Shown here: piece by piece, positions 2,157-31,448 of the stretch
Numbering within the stretch: position 1 is the first letter of the stretch
Layout of the letters: every line of letters starts with the position of its first letter
DNA from: Telmatocola sphagniphila
GTDB taxonomy: Bacteria > Planctomycetota > Planctomycetia > Gemmatales > Gemmataceae
Direction of reading: 5' to 3'
Assembly (NCBI RefSeq): GCF_018398935.1
Contig: NZ_CP074694.1
Location: forward strand, 4,560,001-4,592,000
DNA length: 32,000 nucleotides
The notes under the pieces: generated by a model
Database searches by the model: none
Told to the model about the DNA's origin: nothing
What the model saw: the letters and a program-made list of their open reading frames with translations, nothing else
Made by a program: the position numbers and the translations under genes

Positions 2157-2168
2157 GGAATTTGGATT

Positions 2169-3305: not shown

Positions 3306-3988
3306 ACCTTGCCGACATCCGCGCAGAGCTTGAAGATGAGCTTAGATGGCGTTCGGAAGAACTCCGTTTCTTAAAAAACCAATTGACAGACCTACGAAAT
3401 GATGACGAACGCTGCCAATTTCGACGAGCTCTTGTTGTCATGCTGTATGCGCACTTTGAAGGCTTCTGGAAAGCGGCATTTTCAATCTACGTTAAGACAC
3501 TAAATTCAGAAGGAATTTTATGTAAAGATGCTGTTAATCATTTGGTTGCTGCAAGTCTCTTCGATTTGTTTTCGGCTTTATCAAGCCAAGCAAAGCATCC
3601 CTATTTTCGTGAAAGAGCAGCTGATGATACCAAGCTGCATCAACTATACCGTCAAGTCGAGTTCATCGATAATTTGCCCAACATAGACACAACGCGTCTT
3701 GAGTTGTCCGCAGAAAAAGTTGTAGATACTGAATCCAATCTTTGGCCTGTTGTTATACGGAAGATATTATTTCGCCTTGGATTTCCTGACCAGACATTCG
3801 GAAGCCATGAAGGGGCTGTATGGAATCTTGTTAACAAACGAAATGGTGTTTCCCATGGAACAGATCGATTAGGATTCACAGCGAAAGAATTCAATGAACT
3901 CGAATACGCTGTACTTAATATCATGGAGGACGTTGTAAAGATCCTTTTCAGTTGGTTGCGCGAGCGAAAATTTCTGAAAACAACTTGA
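3302..3988 (+). CDS. HEPN-like putative nuclease (resembles the MAE_28990/MAE_18760-type HEPN family)
   Basis: 228-aa ORF. Its ATG overlaps the upstream stop by 4 nt (ATGA at 3302..3305), suggesting translational coupling. The sequence is helix-rich, with a C-terminal R-x4-H motif (LVNKRNGVSHGTD). The family assignment is from memory of that family's frequent DUF262 neighbourhood and has not been searched. Confidence 0.65.
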   Translation: MNLADIRAELEDELRWRSEELRFLKNQLTDLRNDDERCQFRRALVVMLYAHFEGFWKAAFSIYVKTLNSEGILCKDAVNHLVAASLFDLFSALSSQAKHPYFRERAADDTKLHQLYRQVEFIDNLPNIDTTRLELSAEKVVDTESNLWPVVIRKILFRLGFPDQTFGSHEGAVWNLVNKRNGVSHGTDRLGFTAKEFNELEYAVLNIMEDVVKILFSWLRERKFLKTT

Positions 3989-10900: not shown

Positions 10901-13597
10901 GCCATTCGCCCGGTCGGTGCCGTAATCGGCCGTGGCGGCCACGGAACGCTCGGTATGGTAATCGGCTTCAAAGCTCCACAAGGCATCTTTCTTTAAGTGA
11001 GCGACTTTGACGGAGTCGGCATCGACTCGGAAGAGCTCGCTGGCGAACGCCTGGATATCGGACTCCGGAATCCAGGGGGCTCCCAGATTAGCATCGATAT
11101 CGCCGGGCAGAACATCGGGCGGTTGGACGACGCGTAATGCCTCGGCATTCCGCGAGAATTTTTCGCCCGCTCGCTCGGCTAACGCGAGCTTCGCCCGCAC
11201 ATTACCCGAAAGGTATTCATCCGCCGTTTCCCAGTGTTGCGATTCGGGATTGAGGTAAATCAGTTCCCCCAGTTCGCCGATAATCTTCTCTTCGGGTTGT
11301 CCGTAAAGTTCGGCGATATAACCCAAATCAATGCCGCCCTTGCGGTCGAGCGACACCAATAGCCCTTCCTCGGCACTGCGGACCTGCAGAATCTCCGGCG
11401 TTTTGCCAACGACATCTTTTAGGAGGATGGCAGCTTTGGTCGCTTTACCCGTGACTTCGTCGTACTCTTCGAGCGACATCACCAACATCGCATCGGGGTC
11501 TTCCCGAAACTTCGCGAGATTGGGCATGCGGCGGATCACCGTGCCATCGGCGGTTTCGCCGAAAGTGGTTTTGTTGATCGGACCGTATTGCGACACGAAA
11601 TAGTCATAAGTCTGATTCAGCTTTCTTCGGGCCTGCTCGCGATGCTCCTCCGGCCAGCCCTCATTCTGCGATTGCAACACGCGACGGGCTTCGTCGCGAA
11701 GTTGAATCAACGCGGCTAAGCGTTTGCCCATCAAGCCGCCGGTGGCGGTCAGTACCGTGCTTCCGTGTTGGGCGGGCACGGCCCGACCGCCGATCAGCTG
11801 ACAGATGGCTTTCTGATCGCTCAAGAAAAAACTGCCCTCGGTGATATGCCGCTCCAGAGGAGGCGGAGTGAAGCAAGTTGTAGTATCTCGTTGGGATTCC
11901 GTCGCATCTTGCAGCGTCTCGAACCGGGGCAGGCGGGCAATCGCCTCGCGAAGTTGCGAGGATAAGTCGCCGTTGGATAACACGCTATAACCGGTCTCAC
12001 CGCCATAGAGACTGTCCTTGCTCGTCCAGGTGCCCAGCACCATCTCCGGATGGCTGTGAAAATACTCATTGATCGGAATGGCTTTTCCCTCGATATCGAG
12101 CGGTTCGGACTTCAGCCAGTTGGTCTCCGTGTGATGGGCTGCTTCGTCGGGGGCTCGCTTGCGAAGGAAAACTATATCGGTAACGACAGCAGTGCCTTCG
12201 CGTTTGAAGGCGTCACAGGGAAGGCGGATCGCTCCGATAAAATCGGCTCGCTCCGCGAGATATTCTCGGATCGAGGCATTTTGCTTATCGAGTGTGTAGT
12301 GCGAAGTGACCAGGGCCAGTACTCCGCCGGGCTTTAAGGCATCGACCGATTTGGCAAAGAAGTAATCGTGCAGAGAAAATCGCTGCCCTTTATGATCCAG
12401 CTTGACGTCGGCAAACGGCACGTTGCCGATCACGGCATCGAGCCTGCCATCGGGAAGTTTAGTGTCCCGAAAATTCTCGATGCGGATGTCCTGGTCTGGA
12501 TGCAACGCTTTTGCGATGCGGCCGGAAGTGCGGTCGAGTTCCACTCCGATAAAATGCTGCTTCGGCTTGGCGTAGCTTAAAAAATTCCCGGTGCCGCAGC
12601 CGGGCTCTAAAACCGTGGCTTGTTCCGGGATACCCAGGCGATCTAAGGCTTGGTGCATCGCCGTCATAACAACGGGTGCGGTATAGAAGGCGTTGAAAGT
12701 AGTTCGTTTGGCGGATTCGTAATCTTCGGGGGAGAGTAGGCTTTTCAATTCTTCGCCAAGACTCTGCCACGAAGCGTCTTTGTAAGTGCCTTTAATGGGA
12801 TCGGGAAACAGCGATAACGCCACGGCTCCGAAACCACCGAAGCGGGCCAAAGCTTGCCGTTCTTCCTCGGTGGCCAGACGATTTTCAGCATCGAGCCGGT
12901 TTAAGACGCGGATAGCCGCGAGAATATCGCGGGCCTTCGCTTTTTCACCGGAGGACGTTGAGACGCTCAGAGGGGATGAGTCTGTGGGGACGGTGACTTG
13001 CGAAATGGGTGCTTCGACTTGCTCGATAGGTTGATCGAACAAGGAATTTTGCCGGGGGCGGGGCTTTAATCCGAATCGCTGGGTTAAGTGATGAGAGTCG
13101 GAGGTACTGGCGAATCGCTCGGCATAGCTGGGGGTAAGAATTCCTCCTCCCACTGTTGGAGTGCTACCTCCAATGCGGCTTGGCTTTGAGTGAGGGAATC
13201 CATTGGAAGATCGTTCGGAAAGCTCGCTAGAGCTTCGAGATGAAGCTCCCGAAGTCGACTCGCTTGCCGGTTGACGGTCGACAGGAGAGTCTTCGAAGAG
13301 CGAAGAGGCTCGAAGAGGTTGGATCGGCTTTGAATCCAATCGAGAACGATGGTCTTGTACTGCATTAGGAGCCTCGGTTGGGTCGATCACCGACGTCGTT
13401 GTCTCCGCGAATTCTTCAAAATCGGTGGCAAAGCCGGGGAGTTGAGGAGTCCGTGAAGGGGGCTTCGAGGGCATCAAAAGTAATGAATATTGGAAAGGGG
13501 TAGCAGAGTTATAAATCGATTCCGCGTTCGGAGCAATCGCTTTTTGATGACTGTGAGAATTGGGTAGCAAACAGATCTGAGACATGGGCTTCTCCAT
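7922..13597 (-). CDS. Giant N6-adenine DNA methyltransferase / SNF2-type helicase fusion protein (plasmid and phage DarB-like architecture)
   Basis: 1891-aa ORF.
- Methylase motifs: VLEPGCGTGNFL (motif I) and DAVIGNVPFADVKL (NPPF-like motif IV).
- Helicase motifs: AHVVGAGKTF (motif I), IFIDEAHFFKN (DEAH), ATGTPVSNSMMEMY (SNF2-like motif III), LLGSTMKMGTGTNVQ (motif V), QREGRILRQGN (motif VI).
- The first ~215 aa are S/P-rich and look disordered. Confidence 0.9.
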   Translation of the reverse strand: MEKPMSQICLLPNSHSHQKAIAPNAESIYNSATPFQYSLLLMPSKPPSRTPQLPGFATDFEEFAETTTSVIDPTEAPNAVQDHRSRLDSKPIQPLRASSLFEDSPVDRQPASESTSGASSRSSSELSERSSNGFPHSKPSRIGGSTPTVGGGILTPSYAERFASTSDSHHLTQRFGLKPRPRQNSLFDQPIEQVEAPISQVTVPTDSSPLSVSTSSGEKAKARDILAAIRVLNRLDAENRLATEEERQALARFGGFGAVALSLFPDPIKGTYKDASWQSLGEELKSLLSPEDYESAKRTTFNAFYTAPVVMTAMHQALDRLGIPEQATVLEPGCGTGNFLSYAKPKQHFIGVELDRTSGRIAKALHPDQDIRIENFRDTKLPDGRLDAVIGNVPFADVKLDHKGQRFSLHDYFFAKSVDALKPGGVLALVTSHYTLDKQNASIREYLAERADFIGAIRLPCDAFKREGTAVVTDIVFLRKRAPDEAAHHTETNWLKSEPLDIEGKAIPINEYFHSHPEMVLGTWTSKDSLYGGETGYSVLSNGDLSSQLREAIARLPRFETLQDATESQRDTTTCFTPPPLERHITEGSFFLSDQKAICQLIGGRAVPAQHGSTVLTATGGLMGKRLAALIQLRDEARRVLQSQNEGWPEEHREQARRKLNQTYDYFVSQYGPINKTTFGETADGTVIRRMPNLAKFREDPDAMLVMSLEEYDEVTGKATKAAILLKDVVGKTPEILQVRSAEEGLLVSLDRKGGIDLGYIAELYGQPEEKIIGELGELIYLNPESQHWETADEYLSGNVRAKLALAERAGEKFSRNAEALRVVQPPDVLPGDIDANLGAPWIPESDIQAFASELFRVDADSVKVAHLKKDALWSFEADYHTERSVAATADYGTDRANGTWLFELALNLKSPVIYDTVPGSDKDEKVINPDATLAAKEKQKIIKEKFRSWIFQDPERTERLVRTYNDTYNNLRPRLFDGGHLDFPGMNTTVQLRPHQKDAIWRGMSSGNTLLAHVVGAGKTFTMAATGMKMKQTGLVKKPMYVVPNHMLEQFAREFMQLYPNAHLLVATKEDLSRDKRKFLTAKIASGDWDGIIVTHSSFERIGMSKDYQEKFLREQIAEYDELLRDRSRSQDKPHRNLIKTIEKQKASREAKLKDLLAEDKKDDGLVFDELGVDQIFIDEAHFFKNLETPTKMDRVAGIQTGGSERAFDLFMKCRYLNEQHPGHGVEFATGTPVSNSMMEMYTMQRFLDPKGLSDRGIEHFDAWAATFGEVVDTMEISPDGQSLKPRSRFAKFTNLPELQQMFRAFADVQTAEMLNLPRPKLEGGKATIVACPMSEAQSRLQQELVQRYEQIRSQKVDPRKDNALAITTDGRKLALDARMLDAQAEDDPGSKVNALVENVVRIWRKSEVTRGTQMIFCDMGVNPTPWGYSAYEDIIQKLIRQGIPAEQIAAVGEADSDAKKQALFEKVRQGSVRVLLGSTMKMGTGTNVQKRLVALHHLDAPWKPAEVEQREGRILRQGNESEEVSIYRYVTQGSFDSYMWQALETKARFIAQVISGNCGLRKAEDIGGQELSYAEVKAIASGNPAVLTLAEADAELQRLSVLKKNHADEQYLARKHIRNLPDHIADYQRRLAAFEADRNTIQDHPNSLFVGNRPVPPRDAQAVLGQRLENLPERVSQSTRVALGRYKGLNFGMILHADYPPEVYLEGASKRTATLSREHRGPRAVLNALERLATTYDERCQKERDDLELAQSQLHDYQSRLGQEFAHEDYLAELTNLRDQLKLGLSITTPPAEGEERVSTSEIAERIKDLKSINTIEATAQRSGEQRIIIAEEPVTKRVRERMQREQELLKEEVNPSEETSLPEVSPHLSDYRTQVTQSSDTRSKELMI

Positions 13598-14068: not shown

Positions 14069-14677
14069 AAACGGCGGCGGTGTTAGCGGTTGTTCGTCCA
14101 GGCTGCATGAAATTGCGGTCGTCTTATAAGTGAGAAGGAGTTCCACGTGCTCGAACTCCCTGCCCGGGATCCAGAAGAGATGTGTCCCCTGGAGCAACCG
14201 CTAGAAGGCTCGTTTCAGTTGATCCGCTTAGAACGGCCCCAAGAAACAAGTATCCGAGAAGCCTTGCGAGAAATTACAATCGATAAGGGGTCTTATTCGG
14301 CCTGCACCTGGGCTCAATGCTTCCCAGCCACAGCCGCAAAAAGAAGAGAGATCAGCAGGTGCATTCCGCTGAATGGGGGTAGCGCGAGATCGCTCGAACT
14401 GGGCTTTTTCTATTCTTAAATGGAGTCTTCCGGGTTTGAATGCAACAGCATTCACCCGGAACAAAAGAGCGGTATTTCCAAAAGAGGGAGCGTTGGTCAA
14501 GGACGATGGCGAGGAGGGTCTCCCTGGCTGCACAAGCGAGGCTCTACGAGCGCGGAAGCTAGGGAGGGGCCGCGCCAGCGCCGAAGGAAATCCTTGACCG
14601 ACGCGAGGGGAAATTCCCCAGTTTTACTGCACACGAGTGTTAATCAAATATTAATCGAAGGCTGGCAAAATCCCGAA

Positions 14678-15484
14678 ATGCAGCATGTCTCCAAAAACCA
14701 AAGTGGCTTCACGCTCCTCGAAATGTCGATTGTGGTCATGATCATCGGGCTGCTGGTGGGGGCGATTTTGTTTGGCAGGGATATGATTCATGCGGCGCAA
14801 TTACGCGGCTATACCAGTGCCTTCAATAAATATGAAGCAGCGGGCAATACCTTCAAAACAAAGTACAATTGTCTACCCGGCGATTGCCTCAACGCTACTG
14901 ATTTCTTCGGCAGCACAGTCGTGAATGGTAACGGCAATGGCATCATCGAGCGCACTTATTCCGGGGCCAGCACAACGACATCAAAATATTCCACTTGTAC
15001 AAATTCTGAATTGATTGCCGCCAACTCACATCTTGCATATGCCGGCTTGATCCCGCTTGCTCCGTTCAATCCCACAACGTTGGCGAATTGCGTGCCGAAT
15101 GTCGGCTGGATTGATCCAGTGAATCTTTATTCCGGTGCTGGTGGCTGGACATCGGGTAACGCCATCTGGATTACAAACACCAGTTTGGGGATGACAGTCA
15201 CTTTCGCAGGTAATGGATTGTCGATAGCATCTTACCTGACTCCCTACGAACTTTGGTATATCGACAATAAAGTTGATGATGGCATGCCACAAACAGGACG
15301 CGTTTGGGCGCAAGCATGGCTTGCCAGCGGCGCCAAGAATGATTGGACTTACGCGGTGTGGAATCCTCTAGGTAACGCGGGATGTCAGCTGCAGGACGCC
15401 AATGGAGTCTGGCAATATGCAAGGGTCGATTATCAATTAAACTGGGTAGACAATTGTGCTCTCTACTTCCTGCCGGATTTTTGA
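14678..15484 (+). CDS. Prepilin-type N-terminal cleavage/methylation domain protein (type IV pilin / T2SS pseudopilin-like)
   Basis: The internal ATG at 14678 gives MQHVSKNQSGFTLLEMSIVVMIIGLLVGAILF. This is the classic G/FTLxE prepilin peptidase site followed by a hydrophobic helix. The 86-codon upstream extension in the track ORF is basic and low-complexity and is probably not translated. Confidence 0.75.
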   Translation: MQHVSKNQSGFTLLEMSIVVMIIGLLVGAILFGRDMIHAAQLRGYTSAFNKYEAAGNTFKTKYNCLPGDCLNATDFFGSTVVNGNGNGIIERTYSGASTTTSKYSTCTNSELIAANSHLAYAGLIPLAPFNPTTLANCVPNVGWIDPVNLYSGAGGWTSGNAIWITNTSLGMTVTFAGNGLSIASYLTPYELWYIDNKVDDGMPQTGRVWAQAWLASGAKNDWTYAVWNPLGNAGCQLQDANGVWQYARVDYQLNWVDNCALYFLPDF

Positions 15485-19159: not shown

Positions 19160-19570
19160 TCAGCACGGTTTTTCAGCTTTGGCTCGCTGAGCCTCGGCCC
19201 AGCGGGAGGGGAAGAGGTTGGTCAACTGTTGGTAGTCGGCTTTGGGAATCCGTGCCAGCACGTCTCGCAGGTAGGCGAAAGGGTCGATGCCGTGTCGTCG
19301 GCAAGTTTGCGTGAAGCTGTAGAGCACGGCGGCGGTTCGGCCGCCCTCGTCGCTGCCCGCGAACATCCAATTTTTGCGTCCGACGGCTCCCGCACGCAAG
19401 GCTCGCTCGGCGGCATTGTTGTCGATGTTCAAGAAGCCGTGCTCGGTGAAGCGACGCAAGGCCTCGCTCTGTCGCTGGGCGTAGGCGATGGCTTGGGCCA
19501 TCGGGCTTTTGGGCAACACCAGCTTGGCCTGCTCGTCGATCCAGAGCATGAACTCATTGTCCTTTACCGC
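19160..19570 (-). pseudogene. IS66-family transposase (TnpC) 3' fragment
   Basis: The C-terminal ~135 aa of track ORF 19160..19753 read ...FMLWIDEQAKLVLPKSPMAQAIAYAQRQSEALRRFTEHGFLNIDNNAAERALRAGAVGRKNWMFAGSDEGGRTAAVLYSFTQTCRRHGIDPFAYLRDVLARIP. This matches the conserved IS66 TnpC C-terminus (IDNNxAERxxR...GRKNWxFxGS). The ~350 aa that normally precede it are absent. Confidence 0.8.
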
Positions 19571-19806
19571 GGTTTGATCGCACTTTGGAATTCGAATAGC
19601 CGAATAGTTATTGAATTGCCAGTCGTCGCTTACGCTGCGAATTTGGTAAGGGAATTGACCTGTTAAGTCGGTTTTTCCCCGCCGTCTTTGATCGGTGATA
19701 AATCGTACCTCGCTCCTACCCCGCCTCGTGTCTGTACAATTTTCCTTTTCCATTTTGCTGAGGCTTACTCCTTGGGCGAGGTGCGGTTTTACCGCAGCGA
19801 GGAGGA

Positions 19807-20481
19807 ATGGAGTTCGTTCCCGGCACCGGCAAGAGCTTCATCAAGCAATCCCTTCAGCGGCTTCCCGAAAACCAGCACCTGGTCGCCACCGTGGGCCGCA
19901 CCTTGCACACCTATACCAACTCCGTCAAAATACTCTGCGATGCGTTCCGCATCGACTTCGAAAGCTCTGCCTTCAAGTGCGAACGCCGACTCATCGAACA
20001 AGCCTTCAGCCTCAACCATGCGGGCAAGTCGGTCACCACCATTCTCGACGACGCTCACCTCATGGATATGGCCTGTCTGCGAAAGTTGCGGCTGCTCTTC
20101 GAAGACTTCCCCAAAAACCACAACCTCATCCTCATCGGCCAACCCAGCCTGCTCGCCAACCTCGACCTCGGCGTCAACCAGGACATCAAAAGCCGAGTCA
20201 CTTACTCCGTCATCGCCAAACGGCTCGGACCCGATTTACTGCGCGACTTCCTTCTCCGGGAACTCGATCGCATCGGACTCGGCCACAATACTTTTACGCA
20301 ACCCGCCGTCGATCTCATCGTCCGCGCCGCCGACGGCATCCTGCGTAAAGCCCGCAATCTCTGCGTCGGCTGCCTCATCGAAGCCGTTCGATCCGCCAAT
20401 AAAACCGTGGACATCGACAACGTCAACCGCGTCTTGATGCAACCCCACTGGCAAAAAGAATCCGACCTCGCCGATTACTGA
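19807..20481 (+). pseudogene. AAA_22 / ExeA- or TniB-like transposition ATPase, apparently 5'-truncated
   Basis: The 224-aa ORF begins only 5 residues before the Walker A (MEFVPGTGKSF). Walker B is ILDDAHLM. The same frame has a stop at 19759..19761, so the usual ~35-40 aa N-terminal segment is missing. It abuts the IS66 fragment. Confidence 0.65.
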
Positions 20482-20507
20482 TTCTCAGCGCCCCCGTCGG
20501 AGAAACG

Positions 20508-20813
20508 ATGATCCAACCCGATCTACTACGCCGCATTCGCAACGATTTGCCCATGCCCGTCACCATCGCCACGCTGGGAGCCGATGGGCCACCTTCGAAA
20601 ATGAGCGAAGGTTACTTCCGCTTCCTCTGCCCCAACTGCGGCGAAATGCGGGCTACCGTCAACCCACGCAACAACCTCGCCCACTGCTTCGACTGCCAAA
20701 AAAACTTCAACAACATCGACCTCTTGCTCACTCTCGATTACGACTTCCTCACCGCCGTCGATTTACTCGAACGCTGGCTCAACGAATATCAAACCCGACA
20801 AGCCAAAAAGTAA
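20508..20813 (+). CDS. Small zinc-finger protein (CHC2/primase-like C4 finger), probably part of the same transposon remnant
   Basis: 101-aa ORF with CPNCGEMRATVNPRNNLAHCFDCQKNFNNIDLL (CxxC-x15-HCxxC). Confidence 0.5.
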   Translation: MIQPDLLRRIRNDLPMPVTIATLGADGPPSKMSEGYFRFLCPNCGEMRATVNPRNNLAHCFDCQKNFNNIDLLLTLDYDFLTAVDLLERWLNEYQTRQAKK

Positions 20814-21067: not shown

Positions 21068-21692
21068 CTAGAATTCGACGGCTTCATCCTTGAGTACTTG
21101 CAAATCTTTCGGAAGGAGATTGTCGCAGCGCCCGTGCTTGAGGTGGCTCCAGAGTTGTTCGACGGGATTGAGTTCCGAAGCGTACGGAGGTAGCAATTCG
21201 AAGGATAATTTAGAAAGATCTCTTAGCAATCATCGCTTTTCTTCTGGGCATTTGCGGAGAGAAGCCTTGCTTGCTTATCCAGCCGCAGAGGTAGTTGGTA
21301 TTAAAATGAATGCGTAATTTCTTTTTGATCAAGTGAACGACTCTCGGTGATGTCCAAAGGTTAGTCCGAAAGTCGAAATCTCGGGCGTCGCATAGGAGCC
21401 AGGAACGGATTTCCCGAAGTTGCTCTTGGGTCAATTTGGATTTCGGACCGGGATGCTTAACAGCTTCGAGCCCCTGTTTGTCGCGAGTTTTGTGGCAGGA
21501 GATCCAGCGATCCACGCTACGAGAATTGACCTTAAGTATCTGGGCCACTCTCTGGATAGTATTGCCTTCCAGGGTCAGTTGAACGCCGAGACGGCGTCGA
21601 TTTTCTTGCGCCTGGCTGCTAGTAATTTTCTTGACCAGAGAGGCGGTGGTTTGTGTTGACATAACCATGGTATGGCCACGACCGCACCCCAA
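21068..21692 (-). pseudogene. IS630-family transposase with an internal deletion of the DDE core (non-autonomous remnant)
   Basis: ORF 21210..21692 encodes only the N-terminal HTH part (...IQRVAQILKVNSRSVDRWI...NLWTSPRVVHLIKKKL...GFSPQMPRRKA). Immediately downstream, in another frame (21208..21068), I translate LSFELLPPYASELNPVEQLWSHLKHGRCDNLLPKDLQVLKDEAVEF*. This is the extreme C-terminus of IS630 transposases, including the catalytic E region. About 150 aa between the two parts are missing. Confidence 0.75.
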
Positions 21693-21839
21693 GCAAACGT
21701 ATTGAAAACTATCCCGAGAATTAAAATTCCTTCCCAGGATATTGCAAATGCTGCAACGGCTGTATCAGGGCGAGGAGGAGTGGAGGAGAATAAAACAAGA
21801 TAATAGATCATACAACACGAAGCAGCAATATAAAATAAA

Positions 21840-22364
21840 TCATTGAGGTCTATCCCAAACGAGATCATAAGCGTCCAGTATATTGAAAATATCTAATATC
21901 TCGAGGTAAGTGGGATTATTATCCGTAGAGCTCGCAAGCCAAACTTCAGAATCTATATAACCAAAAACATATTTTATTTTATTTTGAAATGTATTTTTAA
22001 CTGAAAGAAATATGTCGATTGATAACCAATCGTCTGGATAAATCAACTCAGACGACTTATAGTTTGATAACTTGACGCAATTCGAGTGGCTTGCGATTTT
22101 AACAAAATGATCGACAAGTGCAGCATCAGGAGATGAAAATACAACATGAATGCCGCAGAAGCAATTTGAGGTATCTGCTATAAGCAGAGGAAAATAACCA
22201 CGAACCATTAGGTTAAATAGTTTAGGTTTTTCCTTCGCCCAATTTCCATCTGGAAATAAAGGATTTCCAAATTCAAAAAGCAAATCGGTCATATTGAAAT
22301 GCCTCTCCGAGTGAAAAAAAATCAAAGCCTCTCGCATGAGGTTAAAAGCAGAGAATTTATACAC
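21840..22364 (-). CDS. Hypothetical protein in an AT-rich segment; candidate orphan or cognate immunity protein of the RHS locus
   Basis: A 174-codon ORF in very AT-rich DNA, where long stop-free runs are unlikely by chance. The likely real start is ATG 22292 (MTDLLFEFGNPLFPDGNW...), preceded by GGAGAGG. It is on the same strand as the RHS gene and downstream of it. No family is recognised. Confidence 0.45.
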   Translation of the reverse strand: MYKFSAFNLMREALIFFHSERHFNMTDLLFEFGNPLFPDGNWAKEKPKLFNLMVRGYFPLLIADTSNCFCGIHVVFSSPDAALVDHFVKIASHSNCVKLSNYKSSELIYPDDWLSIDIFLSVKNTFQNKIKYVFGYIDSEVWLASSTDNNPTYLEILDIFNILDAYDLVWDRPQ

Positions 22365-22829
22365 AAAGTTACAATCTGAAAATAATTACGACTCTTCAGC
22401 TACAATATGACTGCAAAGGTAAATAAATTGAGGTTGTTATTACAATTAGCAGTAATTAAATATTGACTAGCGATTAATACATACTAATTACTATCAATTT
22501 CCAAGCACGATTACTCCTCGTCAAGTGGTTACATTGTTTGACTTAATTGCAAAATACTCATCTAGTCTGGCGCAATGCGAATTAATCAAAACGAATTTTC
22601 CGTATTAAGAAGAGTATCTTAAGCGGACCTGACAAATCCCAAAATATCAATTGAATGCCCGCACATAAAAGTATTTAGCTGAATCTTAAAATAGATCATA
22701 ATGAATAGCCTGTGCGCAAAAACGCAATAACAAGTTATCTGCATATTTGGTAATAATTTTTATTTAACTAACCTAAGCCGGATATAGTATCGCAGATCGA
22801 ACTAATTGACAAATGCTAATAATTAAGAG

Positions 22830-22890
22830 GCCCTAACAAAACCTCTGATTGTCCATTGAATACCGCTATAAAAAGGGGTTTTGTTAGGGC
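22830..22890. repeat. 14-bp perfect inverted repeat (long-loop hairpin) in the AT-rich gap
   Basis: GCCCTAACAAAACC - about 33 nt - GGTTTTGTTAGGGC. It is a GC-rich island within AT-rich DNA that has no ORF of 60 codons or more, about 190 nt downstream of the RHS stop. Confidence 0.5.
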
Positions 22891-23076
22891 TTCTAAGTAA
22901 AAAACAAGCGAAAATCAAGTTTTCTAGCAAAAATTAAGAATACATATATTGCTACTATTTTGAATAAAACACAATTCTTGATTGATCGATCTTCTCGGAA
23001 GAAAACTAATCAAGTCCGTTTTTCTGTATTCGATGCGAAAAAGATATAGTTTTCGTCGAGGTCGCTTAAGCAATTC

Positions 23077-26000
23077 CTATTTGATACCAACGACCTGATT
23101 TCCATTTGCGTCGACGCGAACTCTAATCTTTTGCCCTCCAGGTGTTAGCCAAATCTGCACAGTCCATTTTGCACCCGGCAGCGTGTCTATAAGCACGGAG
23201 CCGGGAGGCACTACTCCTGTTGGTTGAGAATTTTCATTTCCTTCATAAGCTATATATATAATCCCTCCTATCAAAGCGAGAGCACCTGCACATCTGCAAA
23301 ATCGCATTACAATTTTTACTACTCGTTCACGCGCTGCAAAATCTGGAAATGATCCATTACCTGGAAGTCGTGGTGCATTTGGATCAGTTAATCTCAGAAT
23401 TCTCCACTTATTAAAATCAGTTACACCCGGCTGCTTCTCAATGGCATTACAATATTTCTCTATCATGATTTCAATATTATTTTTTCCGACTTTGGCTTCT
23501 AATTCTGCTAGTGTTAAATCAGTTCTGTTATTTAAAAAAAGGTTTATCAATTTCCGTGCTTCTGCCAAAGTCAAATCTGACAGTCCGAATGGGTCTATAG
23601 ATTTTATAACGTTATTATTACAAAACATATAAAAATTATTGTCACCACTAAGAAATTCAATTGGATCATTTTGCATCCATCTCTCAAGTGTTGGACTGTA
23701 CATTCGATTTCGGAAGCTGGAAAGTCCTCCAGCTTCGAGTTCTCCACCCTGATGCAAAAATTTCCATCCGTATGCACTTCCACTTAAAGAACCCCATGAT
23801 GAATTCAGATAGCTAACCACTCCAAAAGGCGAATAAGTGTACCGCTCAAGTACACTTCCGAAGGTGTTTACTAGAGAGGTTGTGTCGTAATCAGCATTCT
23901 GGAGTGCATAAATTCGCAGATTTAATGTTCCACTTCCAGTACTTGTGTCCCTACTAATCATGGCATCTATGTAGGTTGGGCTCCAAACATACCGATCCGT
24001 TTCAGTACTTCCTTGATATTCTTCGATCAGTTGCCACTGCGCTGAAAAATATCGATCTGTTGTCGTCCCAGATACAATCGCCTGAATTTGACGACCCAAG
24101 GCATCATTCACGTAAGAAGCGATAGTGCTACCGCTGGAATTTTTGACTGCCACCAACATGTTCCAAGCATCATAGACATACTGATTGCTGTTTTCATCGG
24201 TGGTAGTGTTTCCGTTCGAATCGTAACCTGGTGTTGCACTTCCGACTGCCGTGTATTCATTTTGTGTGTTAGCAGTACGCGTCTGGCCCGTTCCATTGGT
24301 CGTAACGTTGGTCATGTTCCCAAAAGAATCATAAGTCCAACTTTGTGTTGCACTGGGTGTTCCACTGATTCCTGTCTTAGTTCCATTCAGAGTCCCCTGG
24401 GCATAACTCGATGTTTGATTCAGTGCGTCGTATGTGAAAATCTCACTTTCCGCTGAATTTAAGAGATTGTTTTCGTAGAGAACGTTGCCATCCGCGTCGT
24501 AGCCATATTGGATTCGATCGACGGCAGTTCCCGAAGAATTAACCCAGCGTTGATCGATCACTCGACCAAAGCTATCCAGGCCGGTGTATTGATCCCCGGC
24601 TGACCCGTTACTCTCCCCCGATTCCTTGATATAAGTCAATTCAATCCCTGCTTGATTAAGATCGCGTACTACGATGGTATCTAATCCCAGATAGGTGTAG
24701 CTCTCTAGAGTTCCCGAGGAATCGCTTAGGGACGAAAGTCGACTGATTGTGTTGTTGAGCCCCGAAGAATAGTTATAGTTAATGGTGTAGCCATCGGCGT
24801 ACGTCATGCTCGTCAATCGACTGTTGTTCGCACCGCCAGCCATTTCCGAGTAAGAATACTGGATTTCAGGAGTAGTGCCGGTCACGACGGCCCCCGAATG
24901 GGATTGGTATTCGCCGATCAATTGATCCAGTCCATTATAAACGTCTTCGACTTGATTTACTATTGTTCCACCACTCGAAGTGCTGTAGCTGGTAAAAAGA
25001 TACGGATTGCCCTGCGTGTCGTAAGCAATCGTATGCTCTCGAATCGTTCCATCAACTCCTGTTCCCAGTTGCACGATAGCATCGGCTGTTTGTCGTCCGA
25101 GAACATCGTACGAGTAAGTGTGTTCATTCCCGTTGCGGTCCTGGAACGAAATTTTCTCACCGAGAGCATCGTAATTGGTTATTTCTTCTTGAGTGGTGCT
25201 GGGTGCGCCGGTTGGTCCGGGATACTCCGTAATTCCTACCAAATCATTGGAATAGAGATAGCTCCCCGGGGTGCCCGTACCGACAACGCCATAAACCCAA
25301 GCCGTGGTTTCGTTGTTACCACTGGCGGCAACGGCTGTTTCGCTCGTCATCCCCACCGCATTGTAAGTGTACTCAGTGGTCTTGTTAGTTTCGTTCGTAG
25401 GAATGCCGTTGGTGTAATCTTGGATAGTTTCCGTTGTTCTCCCCAGCATGTCGTAATAATTTCGAGTGTCCAATCCCAAGGGATCGACGACATCCAAGAC
25501 GTTGCCAGCTGCATCATAACTGGTTGTTGTGACCAATACAGTTGAGCTTGAGCTTGGAACAGAACTGGGTCGCGTGTAAGCTGTTCCTCCATTGGTTCCG
25601 ACGTTCACATCCGCAATTGCACGGTCGGCCATGTCGTAGTAGCTCGCATCATAATAGACGCGAGCTCCGATACCGCTCGTCGGCGATCCGAGGGCCCCCG
25701 TACCGGTGGCACTATCGAACCGCTGACGATCTACCGTCAGGATCACATTGCCATTTGCATCATGGGTATACTCTTTTTGATCGAGCACGGTATCGCTGGC
25801 AACACTGCTGGCCGCTGCCCAAGAATTGCCACCACCACCGTCGGTCGTGTAGTCTACTGTGTTTCGTCCCGCTCCGTCGTAAACTTCTTTCTCGACGAGT
25901 CCGCCCGGACTGGAAGTCTCAATGGCATCGCCACGATGATCGTAGTAAGTGTTCGTATTCAAGGACGATGTCGAAACACTTCCCGTACTCGGATCAACGT

Positions 26001-29000
26001 CAAATGTTTCCGTCAAGTAAACTCGACCTTGATCGTCGTAAAACGTTTGAGTTTCGGCTCGAAGCAGGCTTGCCGAAGGCGTGTTGGGTACTCCGCCCGT
26101 GGAAGTTATGCTCACCCCATCCCCATCGAAATGCTGCACTTCGATGGCTTCATCCAAATTGTTATAAGTTGTATAGTAGATCGGGCGATGGACCGTCGTC
26201 GATTCCGAGGTTTGTACCCCTTCTTTTACGGCAACCGCTCGGTCCCGCCAATCATAATAAGTATCAGTTTCTCGGTTGGCTGTACCGCCACCGGGATATA
26301 GGATCATGGCTGTTTTGTTGCCATCCCCAACACCGCCATTGTCGTAAACGTAAGAGGCAGTTTCCACCATATTGGAGGGGCTGGTGTTGTTGGTCGGTGA
26401 CCAGTAGCCGCTGGCTGGAGTATCGTTGGTTCCGACCCAGGTGCTCACGACTCTTCCCAAACCATCATAAACCGTTCGAATGATCGTTCCGGTGGGATCA
26501 ACGGTCTTTTCCAGCCAACCACGGTGGCCATAGAAATACTGCGTGGCGTAATAATTGGTCCCGGAGGTGCCTAAATAAGTGCTGGTCGAATAGCTCGCGC
26601 CAGAGAGTGAGAAATATTGATCTTCTTCGACGACTTGGTTAGCATCGTTGGTGATGTCACGGGTCAACGATTGAACGTTGGAAATAGCTTCCGTTCCGGT
26701 CGGAACTCCTCCCGAAACCGCCGGAGTCGCCGACATCGTCAATGTTTCGGTGTAGCTATGCGAGCGATCCTCCCGTATGACTTGAGTCGGTTCGCTGGCT
26801 GTGTTTGTAGTCGAATTCCAGCCGATGTAAGTTCGGACTTCGTGATCCGGGTCGTCGTAGACCGTGTAGTCGATATCTCCGTTGGGATGGGTCACTTTTG
26901 TCGTGCGGCCGAGAGCATCAACTACGAAAGAAGTTATCAGATTCAACCCGCCACCGGTAGGCGTGCTCCAGCCCGAAGGAAGATTGACAAATTCCCCCGT
27001 GAGGGAAGTATTCACATCGGTGATTTGAGTAATGACCGCCCCGGTTAAAGTGTCGTATGCCGTGTAATTGATATAGCCATCGGCATCTTTGGTCCAAACG
27101 GGGCGTCCGATTGAATCGTAAACAGTGGTGGAGACATCGGCCGTGCCCGGCCCATTTTCCGCACTGGAGATAACAGGCAACGATATAGTTTCAGAGGCGA
27201 CTTGAGCAGTCGAACCCTGCCAGGTATACGAATAACTGGTAGTTTCTGCCCCAGTTCCATTGGTGTTTCGGTATTGGGTCGAGGTCGCTTCAAAAGCTGT
27301 ATCGTTCCCACTCACCACTTTGTCGTAATAGGTCATCGCTGACTGGGGAATTGTTGTCCCCGAGAGCCCTTGTTGAATCGAGGTACTCATCAAGTAACCG
27401 AGGATATTCCCAGCTGTTGTTCCCGAGGCCGTGGTCGATGTTGCGAAGTTATAATTCGTGATCAAGCCATTCGTCGAAGAAATGTAAGAAGAACTTCCTC
27501 CGGTGAAATTCACAAGATCGGCATAGCTCTCGCTATAGCCGGTGACAGCGGAGGGGTTGGCCGTCAGAATGGCTCTTCCAGAGCTGTCGTATCTCGTATA
27601 GGTGCACCATTTGAGACCCGAGGTCGTGTCTTGGTAGACACTCAACATCGGCTCGTCGTAGACGTTTGAGTAGGTAGTTTGCGTATTTCCATCCGAAAGT
27701 GTTTCGACCGTTTTCATGTGCCAGGAATTGTATCCGGCTGCATTTGAACTGGTGGAATAAGTGAATGTGTCCGTTCCAAAACCCGAAGAACAGGAGGTAC
27801 AACCACTGCCTTGAGTCACCGCTTCAGAAACCTGAAAGTTCGAGTTGTACTGATAATACTCGTCAGCGAATCCCGACAGAACAGTATTGCTAACGGTCGT
27901 GGGATTGCTATATGCTGCAGCCAGGCGAGCGTAAGAATCGGAATTCAAAACATATTCCAATCCTTGTTGGGGGCCATTCGGATCACTCGCCCCATAATAG
28001 CGGTAGTAACTGGTATCTAAGACGTTGCCAGAACCATCCTCAATTTGGGCAAGCTTCAAGTCATTCAAGTTTCCATAAGCTTCGGTCCCATTGTAATAGG
28101 TGTAAATTGCTTGTCTTACAGTCGTCCATGATCCCGAACCTACTTTCGTCCGTTCCACGACCGAAGACACTAATCCTGCGTTTGGATCACCAGAGCCGAG
28201 ATAGCTATAGAGGTAGGATTCGGTAATTGCACTAGACCCGCTACCTACGGTGCGTTGAATTTCGCCAATAGTTCCACTGGAAGTTTCCGATGTGACTTGC
28301 GTCGTTACTCCCGCAGGATCGGTCTCGCTTTGGAATTGACCTTGTTCCGCCGTAGGAGCACTCGATCCGAATCCTGTAAACCTGATTACATCATTGAATT
28401 CATCTACGAAGGTGTATAAGTTTGTCGAAGAGTTGTAGGTTAAATTGCTCCTCCCAAAATTTCGTTCCGTATAGCTACCGCCCGTTTGCAAATCAAAGGT
28501 CTGAAAATCGTTCCCATTGGTGACCACAACAATTGAGTTACCCCCTGCCGCTTGGAGTAGATAAGGGTTTTGAGATACTGTCCAGCCAATGCCAAAGTAA
28601 TCACCTGCAACCACTAGGACGTTATTGGTCCAGCTTCGAGTCAAGCCCCAATCGGAACCAAATCCATTCGAGGACAGATCGGTCGAATTCATCGAAATAA
28701 ACCCGGTGGCGACGTTATCTCCACCTCCCACGCTGGCACCCGAGGGAATGTCACTTGCTCCAGCAGATTCAGTGACGAGGGTATCGCTGCCACAGGATGT
28801 GGTCGTTACTTGGTCGGGCGTGCAATCGCCAATTGGTACAACTCGGGGAGCTGAAACGGTATTGGGTAGTGATACTGGCTGAATACAGATAGGTTTTGGT
28901 GGAGGAACTCCCGGAGTTAGTAAGGGTGTTGCGGCTACCGGTGGAAAAGTGGAAACAAGGGTAGGAACTGCCTGGTTCGTTTGAGGAACTCCATTGTAGA

Positions 29001-29961
29001 TCTGTTCTTCTGCAGCGCCATTGCGATACCCAGCTATCGTGATTGCCGGAACACTGCTTGTGAGCTGAGCAAACCCTACCGTTCCAGATGATCCTGCATC
29101 AAACCCTGATGCATTGAAATTTTCCAGCAAATTTCCTGTTTTTCCATCATATCCTTGGATGTGCAGCTCTGGTGCATTTTTGGGAGAAACCAGAATATCC
29201 GTCGTACCATCTTTGTTCAAATCGCCAGCCGCGACTTGAAGGCCACCCATGTAGCCGGGCGAATACGGTGATAGCGTCTGGATGACCGAGTTCGTTCCTA
29301 AATCAAAAACCTTGATGGAGGGTGCGGCTCCGGCACCACTACCTACAATCGCTTCTGCTTGCCCAAGTGGACTTATCCCAAGAGCAACACTCAGACCTCC
29401 CCGAAAGCTGGGCGAGAAAGCGTAGAAAGAGTCAACCAGAGTTCCATTTAAGGTGAAAGTCTCGACGTGAGGTCCAGCCCCGGCATCTGCTCCAACAATA
29501 ATGCCCATTCGACCTTCGCCGATATTCCCAGCGTCTACGGTGACTCCTCCCAGAAAGCCTGGAGCAAATGCATCGAAGCTACTCAATAAATTTCCGGTGG
29601 CCCCATCGAAAACTTTGATGATGGGTGCCATTCCGGGACCGGGTGCGGCAATGAGATCGGGCACACCATCGCCGTTTAGATCAGCAAGAGCTACCCTTAC
29701 TCCTCCCTTAAAACTCGAATCGTAGGCCATGTAAGAAGCTAATAAACTTCCCGTGGCACTGTCATATTCGCTGATCACAGGACTCTGACCGGGCTTTGCC
29801 CCAACGATATAAGGCAGACTCCCATGAATGATCACATTGCTAAGAAGATCCTTTTGCTCGAGTCGTTGCACGTCCAGACGAATTTTGTGCTGTCGTCGAA
29901 TAGGAAGAGTCTTTTGAACCCAAAAGAGTTTTCGAAACAACCAGATGTGGAATCGCTTCAT
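23077..29961 (-). CDS. FG-GAP/VCBS propeller + RHS/YD-repeat polymorphic toxin with an unassigned C-terminal domain
   Basis: The track ORF is 2314 aa from a TTG at 30021. The ATG at 29961 (MKRFHIWLF...) is the more plausible start.
- N-terminal FG-GAP-like repeats: ADLNGDGVPDLIAAPGPG, AGDLNKDGTTDILVSP.
- A long YD-repeat region: YDALGR, YDGLGRVV, YYDMLGRTTE, YSYDVLGRQT, YGYDADGNVLYE.
- The RHS core end RMYSPTLERWMQNDPIEFLSGDNNFYMFCNNNVIKSIDPFGL, with DPFGL at 23581..23595.
- A 167-aa tail at 23080..23580. Confidence 0.9.
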   Translation of the reverse strand: MKRFHIWLFRKLFWVQKTLPIRRQHKIRLDVQRLEQKDLLSNVIIHGSLPYIVGAKPGQSPVISEYDSATGSLLASYMAYDSSFKGGVRVALADLNGDGVPDLIAAPGPGMAPIIKVFDGATGNLLSSFDAFAPGFLGGVTVDAGNIGEGRMGIIVGADAGAGPHVETFTLNGTLVDSFYAFSPSFRGGLSVALGISPLGQAEAIVGSGAGAAPSIKVFDLGTNSVIQTLSPYSPGYMGGLQVAAGDLNKDGTTDILVSPKNAPELHIQGYDGKTGNLLENFNASGFDAGSSGTVGFAQLTSSVPAITIAGYRNGAAEEQIYNGVPQTNQAVPTLVSTFPPVAATPLLTPGVPPPKPICIQPVSLPNTVSAPRVVPIGDCTPDQVTTTSCGSDTLVTESAGASDIPSGASVGGGDNVATGFISMNSTDLSSNGFGSDWGLTRSWTNNVLVVAGDYFGIGWTVSQNPYLLQAAGGNSIVVVTNGNDFQTFDLQTGGSYTERNFGRSNLTYNSSTNLYTFVDEFNDVIRFTGFGSSAPTAEQGQFQSETDPAGVTTQVTSETSSGTIGEIQRTVGSGSSAITESYLYSYLGSGDPNAGLVSSVVERTKVGSGSWTTVRQAIYTYYNGTEAYGNLNDLKLAQIEDGSGNVLDTSYYRYYGASDPNGPQQGLEYVLNSDSYARLAAAYSNPTTVSNTVLSGFADEYYQYNSNFQVSEAVTQGSGCTSCSSGFGTDTFTYSTSSNAAGYNSWHMKTVETLSDGNTQTTYSNVYDEPMLSVYQDTTSGLKWCTYTRYDSSGRAILTANPSAVTGYSESYADLVNFTGGSSSYISSTNGLITNYNFATSTTASGTTAGNILGYLMSTSIQQGLSGTTIPQSAMTYYDKVVSGNDTAFEATSTQYRNTNGTGAETTSYSYTWQGSTAQVASETISLPVISSAENGPGTADVSTTVYDSIGRPVWTKDADGYINYTAYDTLTGAVITQITDVNTSLTGEFVNLPSGWSTPTGGGLNLITSFVVDALGRTTKVTHPNGDIDYTVYDDPDHEVRTYIGWNSTTNTASEPTQVIREDRSHSYTETLTMSATPAVSGGVPTGTEAISNVQSLTRDITNDANQVVEEDQYFSLSGASYSTSTYLGTSGTNYYATQYFYGHRGWLEKTVDPTGTIIRTVYDGLGRVVSTWVGTNDTPASGYWSPTNNTSPSNMVETASYVYDNGGVGDGNKTAMILYPGGGTANRETDTYYDWRDRAVAVKEGVQTSESTTVHRPIYYTTYNNLDEAIEVQHFDGDGVSITSTGGVPNTPSASLLRAETQTFYDDQGRVYLTETFDVDPSTGSVSTSSLNTNTYYDHRGDAIETSSPGGLVEKEVYDGAGRNTVDYTTDGGGGNSWAAASSVASDTVLDQKEYTHDANGNVILTVDRQRFDSATGTGALGSPTSGIGARVYYDASYYDMADRAIADVNVGTNGGTAYTRPSSVPSSSSTVLVTTTSYDAAGNVLDVVDPLGLDTRNYYDMLGRTTETIQDYTNGIPTNETNKTTEYTYNAVGMTSETAVAASGNNETTAWVYGVVGTGTPGSYLYSNDLVGITEYPGPTGAPSTTQEEITNYDALGEKISFQDRNGNEHTYSYDVLGRQTADAIVQLGTGVDGTIREHTIAYDTQGNPYLFTSYSTSSGGTIVNQVEDVYNGLDQLIGEYQSHSGAVVTGTTPEIQYSYSEMAGGANNSRLTSMTYADGYTINYNYSSGLNNTISRLSSLSDSSGTLESYTYLGLDTIVVRDLNQAGIELTYIKESGESNGSAGDQYTGLDSFGRVIDQRWVNSSGTAVDRIQYGYDADGNVLYENNLLNSAESEIFTYDALNQTSSYAQGTLNGTKTGISGTPSATQSWTYDSFGNMTNVTTNGTGQTRTANTQNEYTAVGSATPGYDSNGNTTTDENSNQYVYDAWNMLVAVKNSSGSTIASYVNDALGRQIQAIVSGTTTDRYFSAQWQLIEEYQGSTETDRYVWSPTYIDAMISRDTSTGSGTLNLRIYALQNADYDTTSLVNTFGSVLERYTYSPFGVVSYLNSSWGSLSGSAYGWKFLHQGGELEAGGLSSFRNRMYSPTLERWMQNDPIEFLSGDNNFYMFCNNNVIKSIDPFGLSDLTLAEARKLINLFLNNRTDLTLAELEAKVGKNNIEIMIEKYCNAIEKQPGVTDFNKWRILRLTDPNAPRLPGNGSFPDFAARERVVKIVMRFCRCAGALALIGGIIYIAYEGNENSQPTGVVPPGSVLIDTLPGAKWTVQIWLTPGGQKIRVRVDANGNQVVGIK

Positions 29962-30536
29962 GGGGAAAATCTCTGTATAGGCGCAGAAAATCTGCGTGCA
30001 TAAACAAGTGAAGGTGCCCAATCAGGACCGATGGGGACAAAACGGAATTAATTTGTTGTGCTCGCTCTTTTGGAACCCATTCTTCAAGGGTATAAAGAGG
30101 TAGCAGGTCAGCTCTCGCGATCAAGACCCGTTCAATAGCTCAGGGGGTCTATTAGAGATGGAAATGCAATAGTTTTGTAAGGATATATCAGTTAGTGATT
30201 CTAAATAATCCGACATGCAGTTCTCCAGGAAAATCTCGAAGATGATTAAGAGGGCATAGCAAGTGTGCCCTGGAGTTTGAGCTATCAATATTCATCAAAC
30301 TTGAAGAAAATACCCAGTCCGGAAAAAGAACCGAGTGGACGTTGTTATTTTGCCTGACGGATCAATTTTGATTTGAAAACGAACTCAATTCAGGCTGAAT
30401 CTGAAGGGATATTAATCGACGGAGAAATCAATTACAAGCGCCGTTTTCCAAAATTTCTGAAAATTTCTCCTGATGCAGTTTTAGTGTATTCTGAGACGCG
30501 AAAATTCAGATTTCGTCTGCTTCTTTTTGAGAATCT

Positions 30537-30574
30537 GGAGTATATCCCATAAAGGACGTTATGGGATATACTCC
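30537..30574. repeat. Perfect 16-bp palindrome arms with 6-nt spacer upstream of vapB
   Basis: GGAGTATATCCCATAA-aggacg-TTATGGGATATACTCC lies about 100 nt upstream of the vapB ATG. A TTGACA hexamer follows at 30617..30622. Confidence 0.6.
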
Positions 30575-30676
30575 AATCACAAATCACAATATAACAAATC
30601 AGCATATATTTATCGATTGACACTTGCCCACTAATTGTGCCAAGATGATTTTGTGTGCAATAAAACGCATTTTGGC

Positions 30677-31365: not shown

Positions 31366-31448
31366 ATCAAACATCATTTTATTCGATGAGTGATTTCTGC
31401 GTGCCCCAGGAAATACTCCCTTTTGAGTCTTCCCTTCCCTCAAAATTA

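Follow-up and report, generated by a model that had tools for sequence, protein, structure and literature searches.

The DNA analysed here is a 32,000-nt stretch of Telmatocola sphagniphila (Gemmataceae; contig NZ_CP074694.1, positions 4,560,001 to 4,592,000 of the forward strand), referred to below as the window. Its minus strand carries a very large gene for a rearrangement hotspot (RHS) protein, in which an FG-GAP propeller at the N terminus is followed by a shell of YD repeats, an RHS core end and a short orphan C-terminal tip. The open reading frame (ORF) is intact over 23077..30021 (-), and the ATG at 29961 gives a product of 2294 aa according to the ORF list and its translation. The same product was chosen by the gene caller on a contig of the Logan assembly, which matches window positions 21148-32000 at 100% and breaks at 21148. 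The exact 2294-aa product is on record from the Logan assembly only and is absent from the NCBI annotation, where the neighbouring 150-aa ORF is present; NCBI may annotate the RHS gene with another start or as a pseudogene. Coordinates of the gene, its parts and its surroundings are collected in Table 1.

Table 1. Features of the RHS locus, in window coordinates (TM, transmembrane; GC3, GC content at third codon positions; HTH, helix-turn-helix)
Feature	Coordinates	Strand	Remarks
RHS polymorphic-toxin gene	23077..29961	-	2294 aa plus stop; alternative TTG start at 30021
N-terminal motif RLDVQRLEQKDLLS, aa 28-41	29839..29880	-	apparent degenerate copy of the planctomycete cell-surface signal (RRLxxExLExRxLLA / LxLExLExRxxP)
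FG-GAP integrin-alpha-like beta-propeller, ~aa 55-345	28927..29799	-	Pfam and integrin alpha-V profile match
YD/RHS repeat shell, ~aa 420-2042	23836..28704	-	TIGR01643; homologues with PF05593, PF25023
RHS-associated core / C-terminal plug, aa 2043-2127	23581..23835	-	TIGR03696; aspartyl-protease motif DPIE-X20-DPFG-L
Composition-break zone	23640..24096		GC3 change ~24096, total GC at 23672; both within the core, upstream of DPFGL
Orphan tip, 167 aa	23080..23580	-	helical N-terminal part with DLTLAE twice, hydrophobic segment, predicted strands in the C-terminal tail
Hydrophobic segment IVMRFCRCAGALALIGGIIYIAY, tip residues 90-112	23245..23313	-	candidate TM helix, AxxxAxxxG small-residue pattern
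AT-rich non-coding spacer, GC ~0.33	22365..23076		14-20 stop codons in every frame
150-aa orphan ORF (174 aa from GTG at 22364)	21840..22292	-	sole soluble candidate for an immunity protein
97-aa ORF rich in hydrophobic segments	21575..21868	-	29-nt overlap with the end of the 150-aa ORF; reaches into the IS630 remnant
IS630-family transposase remnant bounding the AT-rich island	21068..21692	-	HTH_33/HTH_23; DDE C-terminal fragment in ORF 21068..21229

The architecture first read from the DNA alone, an FG-GAP propeller, YD repeats and an RHS core ending in DPFGL at 23581..23595 (-), was borne out by Pfam, NCBIfam and the coordinates. FG-GAP (Pfam) matches residues 87-108 with E=1e-8 and FG-GAP_3 matches residues 233-258, and, when a profile of the protein family was compared with the Protein Data Bank (PDB), its positions 66-266 matched the propeller of integrin alpha-V (E ~2e-7). 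YD repeats of the NCBIfam model TIGR01643 were matched in three stretches (E=2.4e-4), and homologues at 43-56% identity carry PF05593 and the TEN_YD-shell family PF25023. Rhs_assc_core (TIGR03696) covers residues 2043-2127 at E=6.4e-13, which passes its curated cut-off. The predicted aspartyl-protease plug formed by this region retains both presumed catalytic aspartates and ends in DPFGL: the query reads DPIE-X20-DPFG where the family spacing is DPxG-X20-DPxG, D2099 and D2123 (both 21/21) and G2126 do not vary, and 20 of 21 family members share L2127. The first G of DPxG, kept in 12 of the 21, is replaced by E in the query. In Tse5, the equivalent aspartates are required for cleavage after DPxGL (PMC10684867).

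Public proteins include about 30 full-length homologues, at 43-56% identity to the query, and GTDB genomes at least 178 relatives of the same architecture. The latter came from a profile search of genome contigs with the family alignment, which was needed because the single protein as query returned nothing; the source genome itself was not among the results. Relatives are mostly Gemmataceae (Gemmata, Fimbriiglobus, Zavarzinella formosa, Limnoglobus roseus and Frigoriglobus), with some Isosphaeraceae, Tepidisphaeraceae and Pirellulales and a few Verrucomicrobiota, and several paralogues are often present per genome. More than 170 columns are invariant over 21 family members. The best PDB matches of the family profile are bacterial teneurin-like proteins (TLPs; E=4e-20), followed by Rhs proteins including RhsA and Tse5 (E=1e-11).

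After DPxGL, by contrast with this conserved body, the tips of family members range from 75 to 381 aa and each is different; 53 distinct tips were extracted, and 50 of them, once aligned, had a mean column identity of 7%. Only one of the 50 has a Pfam match (a PT-HINT domain), and among nine further C termini one carries PT-HINT with Ntox33 and one DUF6973. The Ntox33 domain of this one relative ties the family to polymorphic toxins. Of 36 related loci, 28 have a tip whose GC lies more than 5 points below that of the core, the median difference being -9 points. Hypervariable tips with a break in composition are a hallmark of competition-driven polymorphic toxins. The query is thus very probably an RHS polymorphic toxin of a planctomycete-wide family, and the original prediction of an FG-GAP and RHS polymorphic toxin, its tip swapped and unassigned, is supported. 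Since 49 of the 50 scanned family tips have no Pfam match, an unassigned tip is the family norm and gives no ground to single out the T. sphagniphila locus.

The tip of the query was seen in the sequence as it had been described, with 167 residues, a hydrophobic stretch and a doubled DLTLAE. The two copies of DLTLAE occupy tip residues 2-7 and 21-26, CAGALALIGGIIYIAY lies at tip residues 97-112, and the highest 19-residue Kyte-Doolittle window (IVMRFCRCAGALALIGGII) scores 1.83, the usual cut-off for a membrane helix being 1.6. A weak, non-significant match to DMAC1_Dmo2 (Pfam, E=0.1) falls over the hydrophobic segment. That this segment belongs to a C-terminal sorting signal of the PEP-CTERM or LPXTG type was considered and rejected, as 55 residues come after the helix. 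In dinucleotide shuffles of its DNA the tip frame was open in 0 of 5000, and the tip is a maintained reading frame, not a chance ORF.

The original prediction had recognised no nuclease, deaminase or ADP-ribosyltransferase motif in the tip, which agrees with the searches. No homologue was found by a word-indexed search of a 5.8 billion-sequence protein collection, and none that was credible by an exhaustive phmmer search of 1.84 billion representative proteins; two phmmer matches, to a eukaryotic tenascin with FN3 repeats and to an LVIVD-repeat protein, were rejected as repeats summing short chance matches. Pfam, NCBIfam and PADLOC hold no family for it and no catalytic motif was found in the libraries searched, tblastn gave no match in PLSDB and no relative in 79 related loci, and a scan of JGI metagenome contigs was likewise empty. 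Against all PDB chains, phmmer returned only a designed protein (E=0.59), with no similarity to Tse5 or TLPs. AlphaFold2 run on the single sequence gave an unusable model with a mean predicted local distance difference test (pLDDT) of 46, and Foldseek with this low-confidence model found no match below E=0.3. The beta-rich tail of the original prediction does appear as predicted strands, in that same model, and is weakly supported. The tip is probably a functional toxin.

The tip and its surroundings form part of an AT-rich island that comprises the core end, the tip, the 712-nt spacer and the 150-aa ORF, up to the IS630 remnant, and whose upstream edge lies within the core. The maximum-likelihood change-point in total GC falls at 23672 (support 23640-23977), 77 nt upstream of DPFGL, with a support interval that excludes the DPFGL boundary; a second change-point at 23444, within the tip, marks a return of GC to 0.44. 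The GC3 change-point follows codon 1955 (support 1936-2009; window ~24096), with GC3 at 0.50 before it and 0.30 beyond it. It lies 172 codons upstream of the L in DPFGL, a boundary that is 9.6 log-likelihood units worse, and the change-point statistic was reached in 0 of 500 permutations. After residue 1955, identity between query and family drops from 0.56 to 0.46, against 0.61 to 0.55 within the family, and the closest relatives of the query change. Over the final 35 core residues the query departs at positions kept by most relatives (G2093E, G2102E, P2118V). The original prediction had placed the drop to AT-rich DNA exactly after DPFGL and had named a failure of the two to coincide, beforehand, as a refutation. 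That claim does not hold, with total GC breaking 77 nt and GC3 172 codons further upstream. The missing coincidence leaves the cassette swap itself unrefuted and moves its breakpoint into the last ~30-170 codons of the core. Because the GC and GC3 change-points, the residue departures and the change of relatives all fall inside the core, the joint is placed there, and the cassette swap is well supported.

Downstream of the RHS stop codon, the spacer at 22365-23076 was examined frame by frame for a decayed or small immunity gene and none was found. It has no Rfam match and resembles neither the related loci nor any other part of the window, and its small ORFs of 35-49 aa have no TM segment and no other support. 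A strong inverted repeat at 22826-22894 (21-nt arms, 90% complementary, with a 27-nt loop), ~180-250 nt past the RHS stop, could be a terminator or a recombination site; each of its arms is itself a small palindrome. Beyond the spacer, the 150-aa ORF is 100% identical to T. sphagniphila KIH39_18350, its sole match in the 5.8 billion-sequence collection, and has no match in Pfam, NCBIfam or PADLOC. It lacks a TM segment (maximum Kyte-Doolittle score 1.39), and its AlphaFold2 model from single sequence has a pLDDT of 33. An ORF of this length arises in 2-4 of 1000 shuffles. Because it is unlikely to be a chance ORF and belongs to the same AT-rich island, the 150-aa ORF is the best candidate for an immunity gene, in an atypical arrangement. 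Of 33 related loci, 25 have an ORF on the same strand that starts ≤~100 nt from the tip stop, by a mechanical count that is generous in GC-rich DNA. The overlapping 97-aa ORF is doubtful: it reaches a Kyte-Doolittle maximum of 2.28, overlaps the IS630 HTH ORF (21210..21692) in a different frame, has no homologue in 79 related loci, and may be a membrane protein truncated by the insertion sequence or spurious.

The original prediction held a membrane-targeting or pore-forming activity of the tip to be conceivable. One hydrophobic segment with a Kyte-Doolittle score of 1.83 and published precedents favour this idea, which ranks as possible. Within the family, TM-like segments occur in ~7 of 52 tips (e.g., L004, L008, L003 and P0009), several of them strong glycine zippers. 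The idea is reasonable because such a hydrophobic segment is present in the query and because the toxic domains Tse5-CT and BiTLP-CTD are precedents for it in RHS/YD shells; a membrane-active tip is, given those two, not new in kind. BiTLP-CTD, with one predicted TM region, is toxic only when a signal peptide directs it to the periplasm, and it makes cells permeable to propidium iodide (PMC13018210). Membrane activity would be the most likely mode of action of the tip, and is put forward tentatively.

The same data can be read as a soluble toxin, an enzyme or a binding protein acting in the cytoplasm or periplasm of the target, with the 150-aa ORF (21840..22292) as its immunity protein under a promoter of its own in the spacer and the hydrophobic segment as a buried core helix. 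Such an arrangement is possible, short of probable. It accords with an ORF on the same strand and in the same AT-rich island, improbable by shuffling, orphan like the tip and free of TM segments. Characterised RHS tips are mostly enzymes (PMC3482391, PMC13018210), and Ntox33 occurs in one family member. Set against a soluble toxin are the lack of a catalytic motif or family match in any library, a 19-residue window at 1.83, which a soluble domain of this size would not usually have, and a gap of 712-785 nt that is atypical of toxin-immunity pairs in the family.

The same gap bears on a further possibility, that the protein is a surface adhesin or a toxin directed at eukaryotic grazers, like Tc toxins or teneurins, which would need no immunity gene and would leave the downstream ORFs as unrelated cargo. 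A 712-nt non-coding gap in place of an adjacent immunity gene is what this would lead one to expect, and the homologues P0013 and P0016 also have no called co-directional gene directly downstream. The integrin-like N-terminal propeller suggests adhesion, and TLPs are the best PDB match. Weighed against these points, the nearby same-strand ORFs of the 25 of 33 related loci argue the other way (weakly, the count being mechanical), hypervariable tips with a composition break are typical of toxins shaped by competition between bacteria, and one relative carries the bacterial toxin module PT-HINT with Ntox33. A role in adhesion or against eukaryotes is accordingly judged improbable.

As to export, no PAAR, VgrG, Hcp or TpsB was found in the protein or in the other large window ORFs scanned, and there are no type VI secretion system (T6SS) genes in the window or around three homologues. 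No classical Sec signal was seen. The original prediction, in which PAAR, VgrG, two-partner secretion, T6SS context and an obvious Sec signal peptide were all reported missing, is upheld in this respect. It had also called export open, which is only partly so, as the N terminus aligns with a planctomycete surface motif in degenerate form. In a MAFFT alignment, RLDVQRLEQKDLLS lies in register with the family motif RLxxxxLE[DE]R and reads LEQK where the family has LE[DE]R. The family N terminus consists of a basic stretch followed by L-x-x-LE[DE]R-x-V-P in ~21 of 34 relatives and in 58 of the 120 best hits, and the surface-signal motif also heads 37 unrelated FG-GAP giants among the hits. The corresponding family PF07595 was matched by three homologues at E=0.0014-0.07, all below its gathering score, and left the query unmatched; a hidden Markov model (HMM) of the motif gave 2.4 bits on the query, a non-significant value exceeded by shuffled sequences.

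The RRLxxExLExRxLLA type of motif is a planctomycete cell-surface motif (Pfam PF07595) whose role in export was originally proposed for Rhodopirellula. The Gemmataceae species Tuwongella immobilis has 52 motif-bearing proteins, and in its proteome 8 of the 20 detected were found only in the envelope fraction soluble in sodium dodecyl sulfate (PMC8567305). Compared with known planctomycete surface proteins (PF07595; Studholme 2004), the N termini of the RHS family have the motif equally far from the start, and many giant FG-GAP proteins of the phylum share it, whereas the copy in the query differs in being degenerate and recognised neither by PF07595 nor by the family motif HMM. The N terminus of the query thus looks like a degenerate copy of the surface signal, and this copy may be impaired. 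No description of an RHS toxin fused to a planctomycete surface signal was found in the literature searched.

Seven metagenome proteins of ~1300-2200 aa (P0042, P0043, P0046, P0052, P0060, P0062 and P0091) combine a similar FG-GAP propeller with the Phage_base_V/VgrG-like family PF04717, and one such protein is named 'T6SS baseplate-like injector VgrG/VCBS repeat protein' by its source. These proteins hint that FG-GAP modules are joined to contractile-injection spikes too.

The degenerate signal enters into one more alternative, in which the tip cassette is an inactive leftover: the immunity gene would have been lost after displacement and IS630 activity, and the tip would be decaying, or tolerated if it is not expressed or not exported. 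The IS630 remnant does abut the island and seems to cut the 97-aa ORF, the export motif reads LEQK for LE[DE]R, several conserved core-end residues are replaced, and the exact product is recorded from the Logan assembly and not from the NCBI annotation. This reading is nevertheless highly improbable, given an intact ORF of 2294 codons in which the tip, AT-rich as it is, stays open against 0 of 5000 shuffles, the retention of both catalytic aspartates and of the G-L of the cleavage motif, and the absence of a recently decayed gene from any frame of the spacer.

Three further known systems were compared with the query. Tse5 (PA2684), a T6SS Rhs effector of Pseudomonas aeruginosa, likewise has an RHS shell with an aspartyl-protease plug (DPxG-X19-DPxG), and it is cleaved after DPxGL (PMC10684867), as the query may be. 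The shell of Tse5 encloses a small hydrophobic C-terminal toxin, which reaches the membrane from its periplasmic face (PMC10684867, PMC9637101). In contrast, Tse5 is mounted on VgrG via its N-terminal region and depends on the T6SS, while neither PAAR nor VgrG accompanies the query; Tse5 is paired with the immunity protein Tsi5, and it shares no sequence similarity with the query tip.

TLPs, for example BiTLP of Bacillus inaquosorum (PDB 9pt5/9ifo; PMC13018210), resemble the query in being large YD/RHS shells, surface-directed as the query may be, with a beta-propeller upstream of the shell and no recognisable delivery machinery. They also have a hypervariable, mostly unannotated C-terminal domain of ~15 kDa, which is released autoproteolytically, as the tip of the query would be (PMC13018210). 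The profile match to the query family, however, is limited to the C-terminal shell and plug (positions 1891-2220). The propeller of TLPs is of the NHL type and sits next to the FN-plug, whereas that of the query is FG-GAP, integrin-like and at the extreme N terminus, and no TIP domain and no Sec or lipoprotein signal were seen in the query. The immunity gene of TLPs almost always lies immediately downstream, and none adjoins the query; BiTLP-CTD and the query tip share no sequence similarity. Planctomycetes go unmentioned in the TLP study (PMC13018210). Classing the query as a TLP was rejected, as the match covers only the C terminus of the shell.

In the contact-dependent toxins of the enterobacterial Rhs and Bacillus WapA type (Koskiniemi et al. 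2013; Jackson et al. 2009; PMC4436062, PMC3482391), as in the query, a core ending in DPxGL is followed by a displaced, AT-richer foreign tip gained by C-terminal displacement. Their composition break lies at the boundary, whereas that of the query falls 80 to ~500 nt ahead of DPFGL, within the core. In place of their Sec signal or PAAR the query has an FG-GAP propeller and an apparent, degenerate planctomycete signal motif, and, unlike theirs, any immunity gene of the query is not adjacent. Export without a T6SS has a precedent in WapA.

The best explanation of the locus, to which slightly better than even credence is given, is a T6SS-independent planctomycete RHS toxin with a tip gained by C-terminal displacement and membrane action as its most likely mode. 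The AT-rich island would have been acquired by C-terminal displacement through recombination within the conserved core end. The protein would then be exported to the cell surface by a planctomycete route, where the FG-GAP propeller would bind the target; the tip, cleaved after DPFGL, would be kept in the shell until delivery and would be toxic. Its hydrophobic helix (tip residues 90-112) would insert into the cytoplasmic membrane of the target from the periplasmic side and permeabilise or depolarise it.

Several observations weigh against this explanation. The hydrophobic segment is a single one of modest score, with a small-residue pattern common to any hydrophobic helix, and the tip is without sequence similarity to PDB chains, Tse5 and TLPs included. 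With no homologue of the tip in anything searched, conservation and fold are unusable as evidence, as are the AlphaFold2 models of the tip (pLDDT 46) and the 150-aa ORF (pLDDT 33). No immunity gene abuts the toxin, the stop codon being followed by 712 nt of non-coding DNA as against an ORF ≤~100 nt away in 25 of 33 related loci by the mechanical count given above, and the sole clear downstream ORF (150 aa) has no TM segment. For a membrane-active toxin this would be unusual, since the immunity proteins of such toxins tend to sit in the membrane themselves. Finally, the N-terminal motif of the query itself has no statistical support from PF07595 or the motif HMM.

The gene lies among plasmid-type genes. 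RepA/RPA, ParA, a TrwC relaxase and VapBC are encoded in the window, and past its right end (L085:1-8561) follow a tyrosine integrase, a tyrosinase (PF00264), several unannotated ORFs and a coupling protein of the TraG/TrwB type. Because the element runs on past the right end of the window, the RHS gene sits inside a conjugative or mobilisable element and not at its edge. The description of the toxin as plasmid-borne in the original prediction is consistent with these genes and is otherwise doubtful, since the adjacent 150-aa ORF (KIH39_18350) is recorded on a contig of 6,592,641 bp and PLSDB has no match. No tRNA marking an integration site was found in the window. RPA initiators within planctomycete chromosomes have been interpreted as integrated plasmids (bioRxiv 10.1101/2024.01.22.576637). 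From the plasmid-type genes, the 6.59-Mb contig and the empty PLSDB search, the element is taken to be plasmid-derived and probably integrated in a chromosome-sized replicon, as opposed to a free plasmid.

Other genes of the window were recorded in passing. Beside the replication gene lies a defence-like trio (879..3988, +). Its members are a DNA methylase (PF01555), a GmrSD-type nuclease (PADLOC NsnA match, E=1e-59) and a HEPN protein of the RiboL-PSP/MAE_28990 type, with stop and start codons that overlap. The mobile element also carries a methyltransferase fused to a SNF2/ResIII helicase (7922..13597, -; 1891 aa), with weak PADLOC matches to mad2, BrxH and DrmD. A prepilin-type N_methyl protein is encoded on the element at 14420..15484 (+); its motif lies at residues 92-117, so the true start is probably downstream of the listed one. 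N_methyl and SBP_bac_10 genes also occur near the RHS homologues P0013 and P0004, probably from their abundance in planctomycetes. Between 19160 and 21692 lies mobile-element debris, namely an IS66 transposase fragment (19160..19753, -), an AAA_22 ATPase with a 101-aa zinc-finger ORF (19807..20813, +), and the IS630 remnant (21068..21692, -), which is without most of its DDE domain.

By itself the locus changes little, being one more RHS toxin with an uncharacterised tip; the query is a further example of a known toxin type, and the family is more interesting than the locus. Instead of PAAR or VgrG, the family joins an integrin-like propeller and the phylum's surface-signal motif to a toxin shell. 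It thereby offers a concrete handle on the export and delivery of T6SS-independent shell toxins, a question left open also by the 2026 study of teneurin-like proteins, and another on the function of the planctomycete LE[DE]R signal. Interbacterial warfare in planctomycetes is, to our knowledge, essentially unstudied. With nearly all of its tips unannotated, the family is a good hunting ground for new toxin domains. The query tip might even found a new class of single-helix membrane-permeabilising toxins, delivered without a T6SS via an LE[DE]R-type signal and an FG-GAP propeller, which we consider rather unlikely; if it did, the family, in which ~95% of tips have no Pfam match, would be a large reservoir of new toxin and immunity folds.

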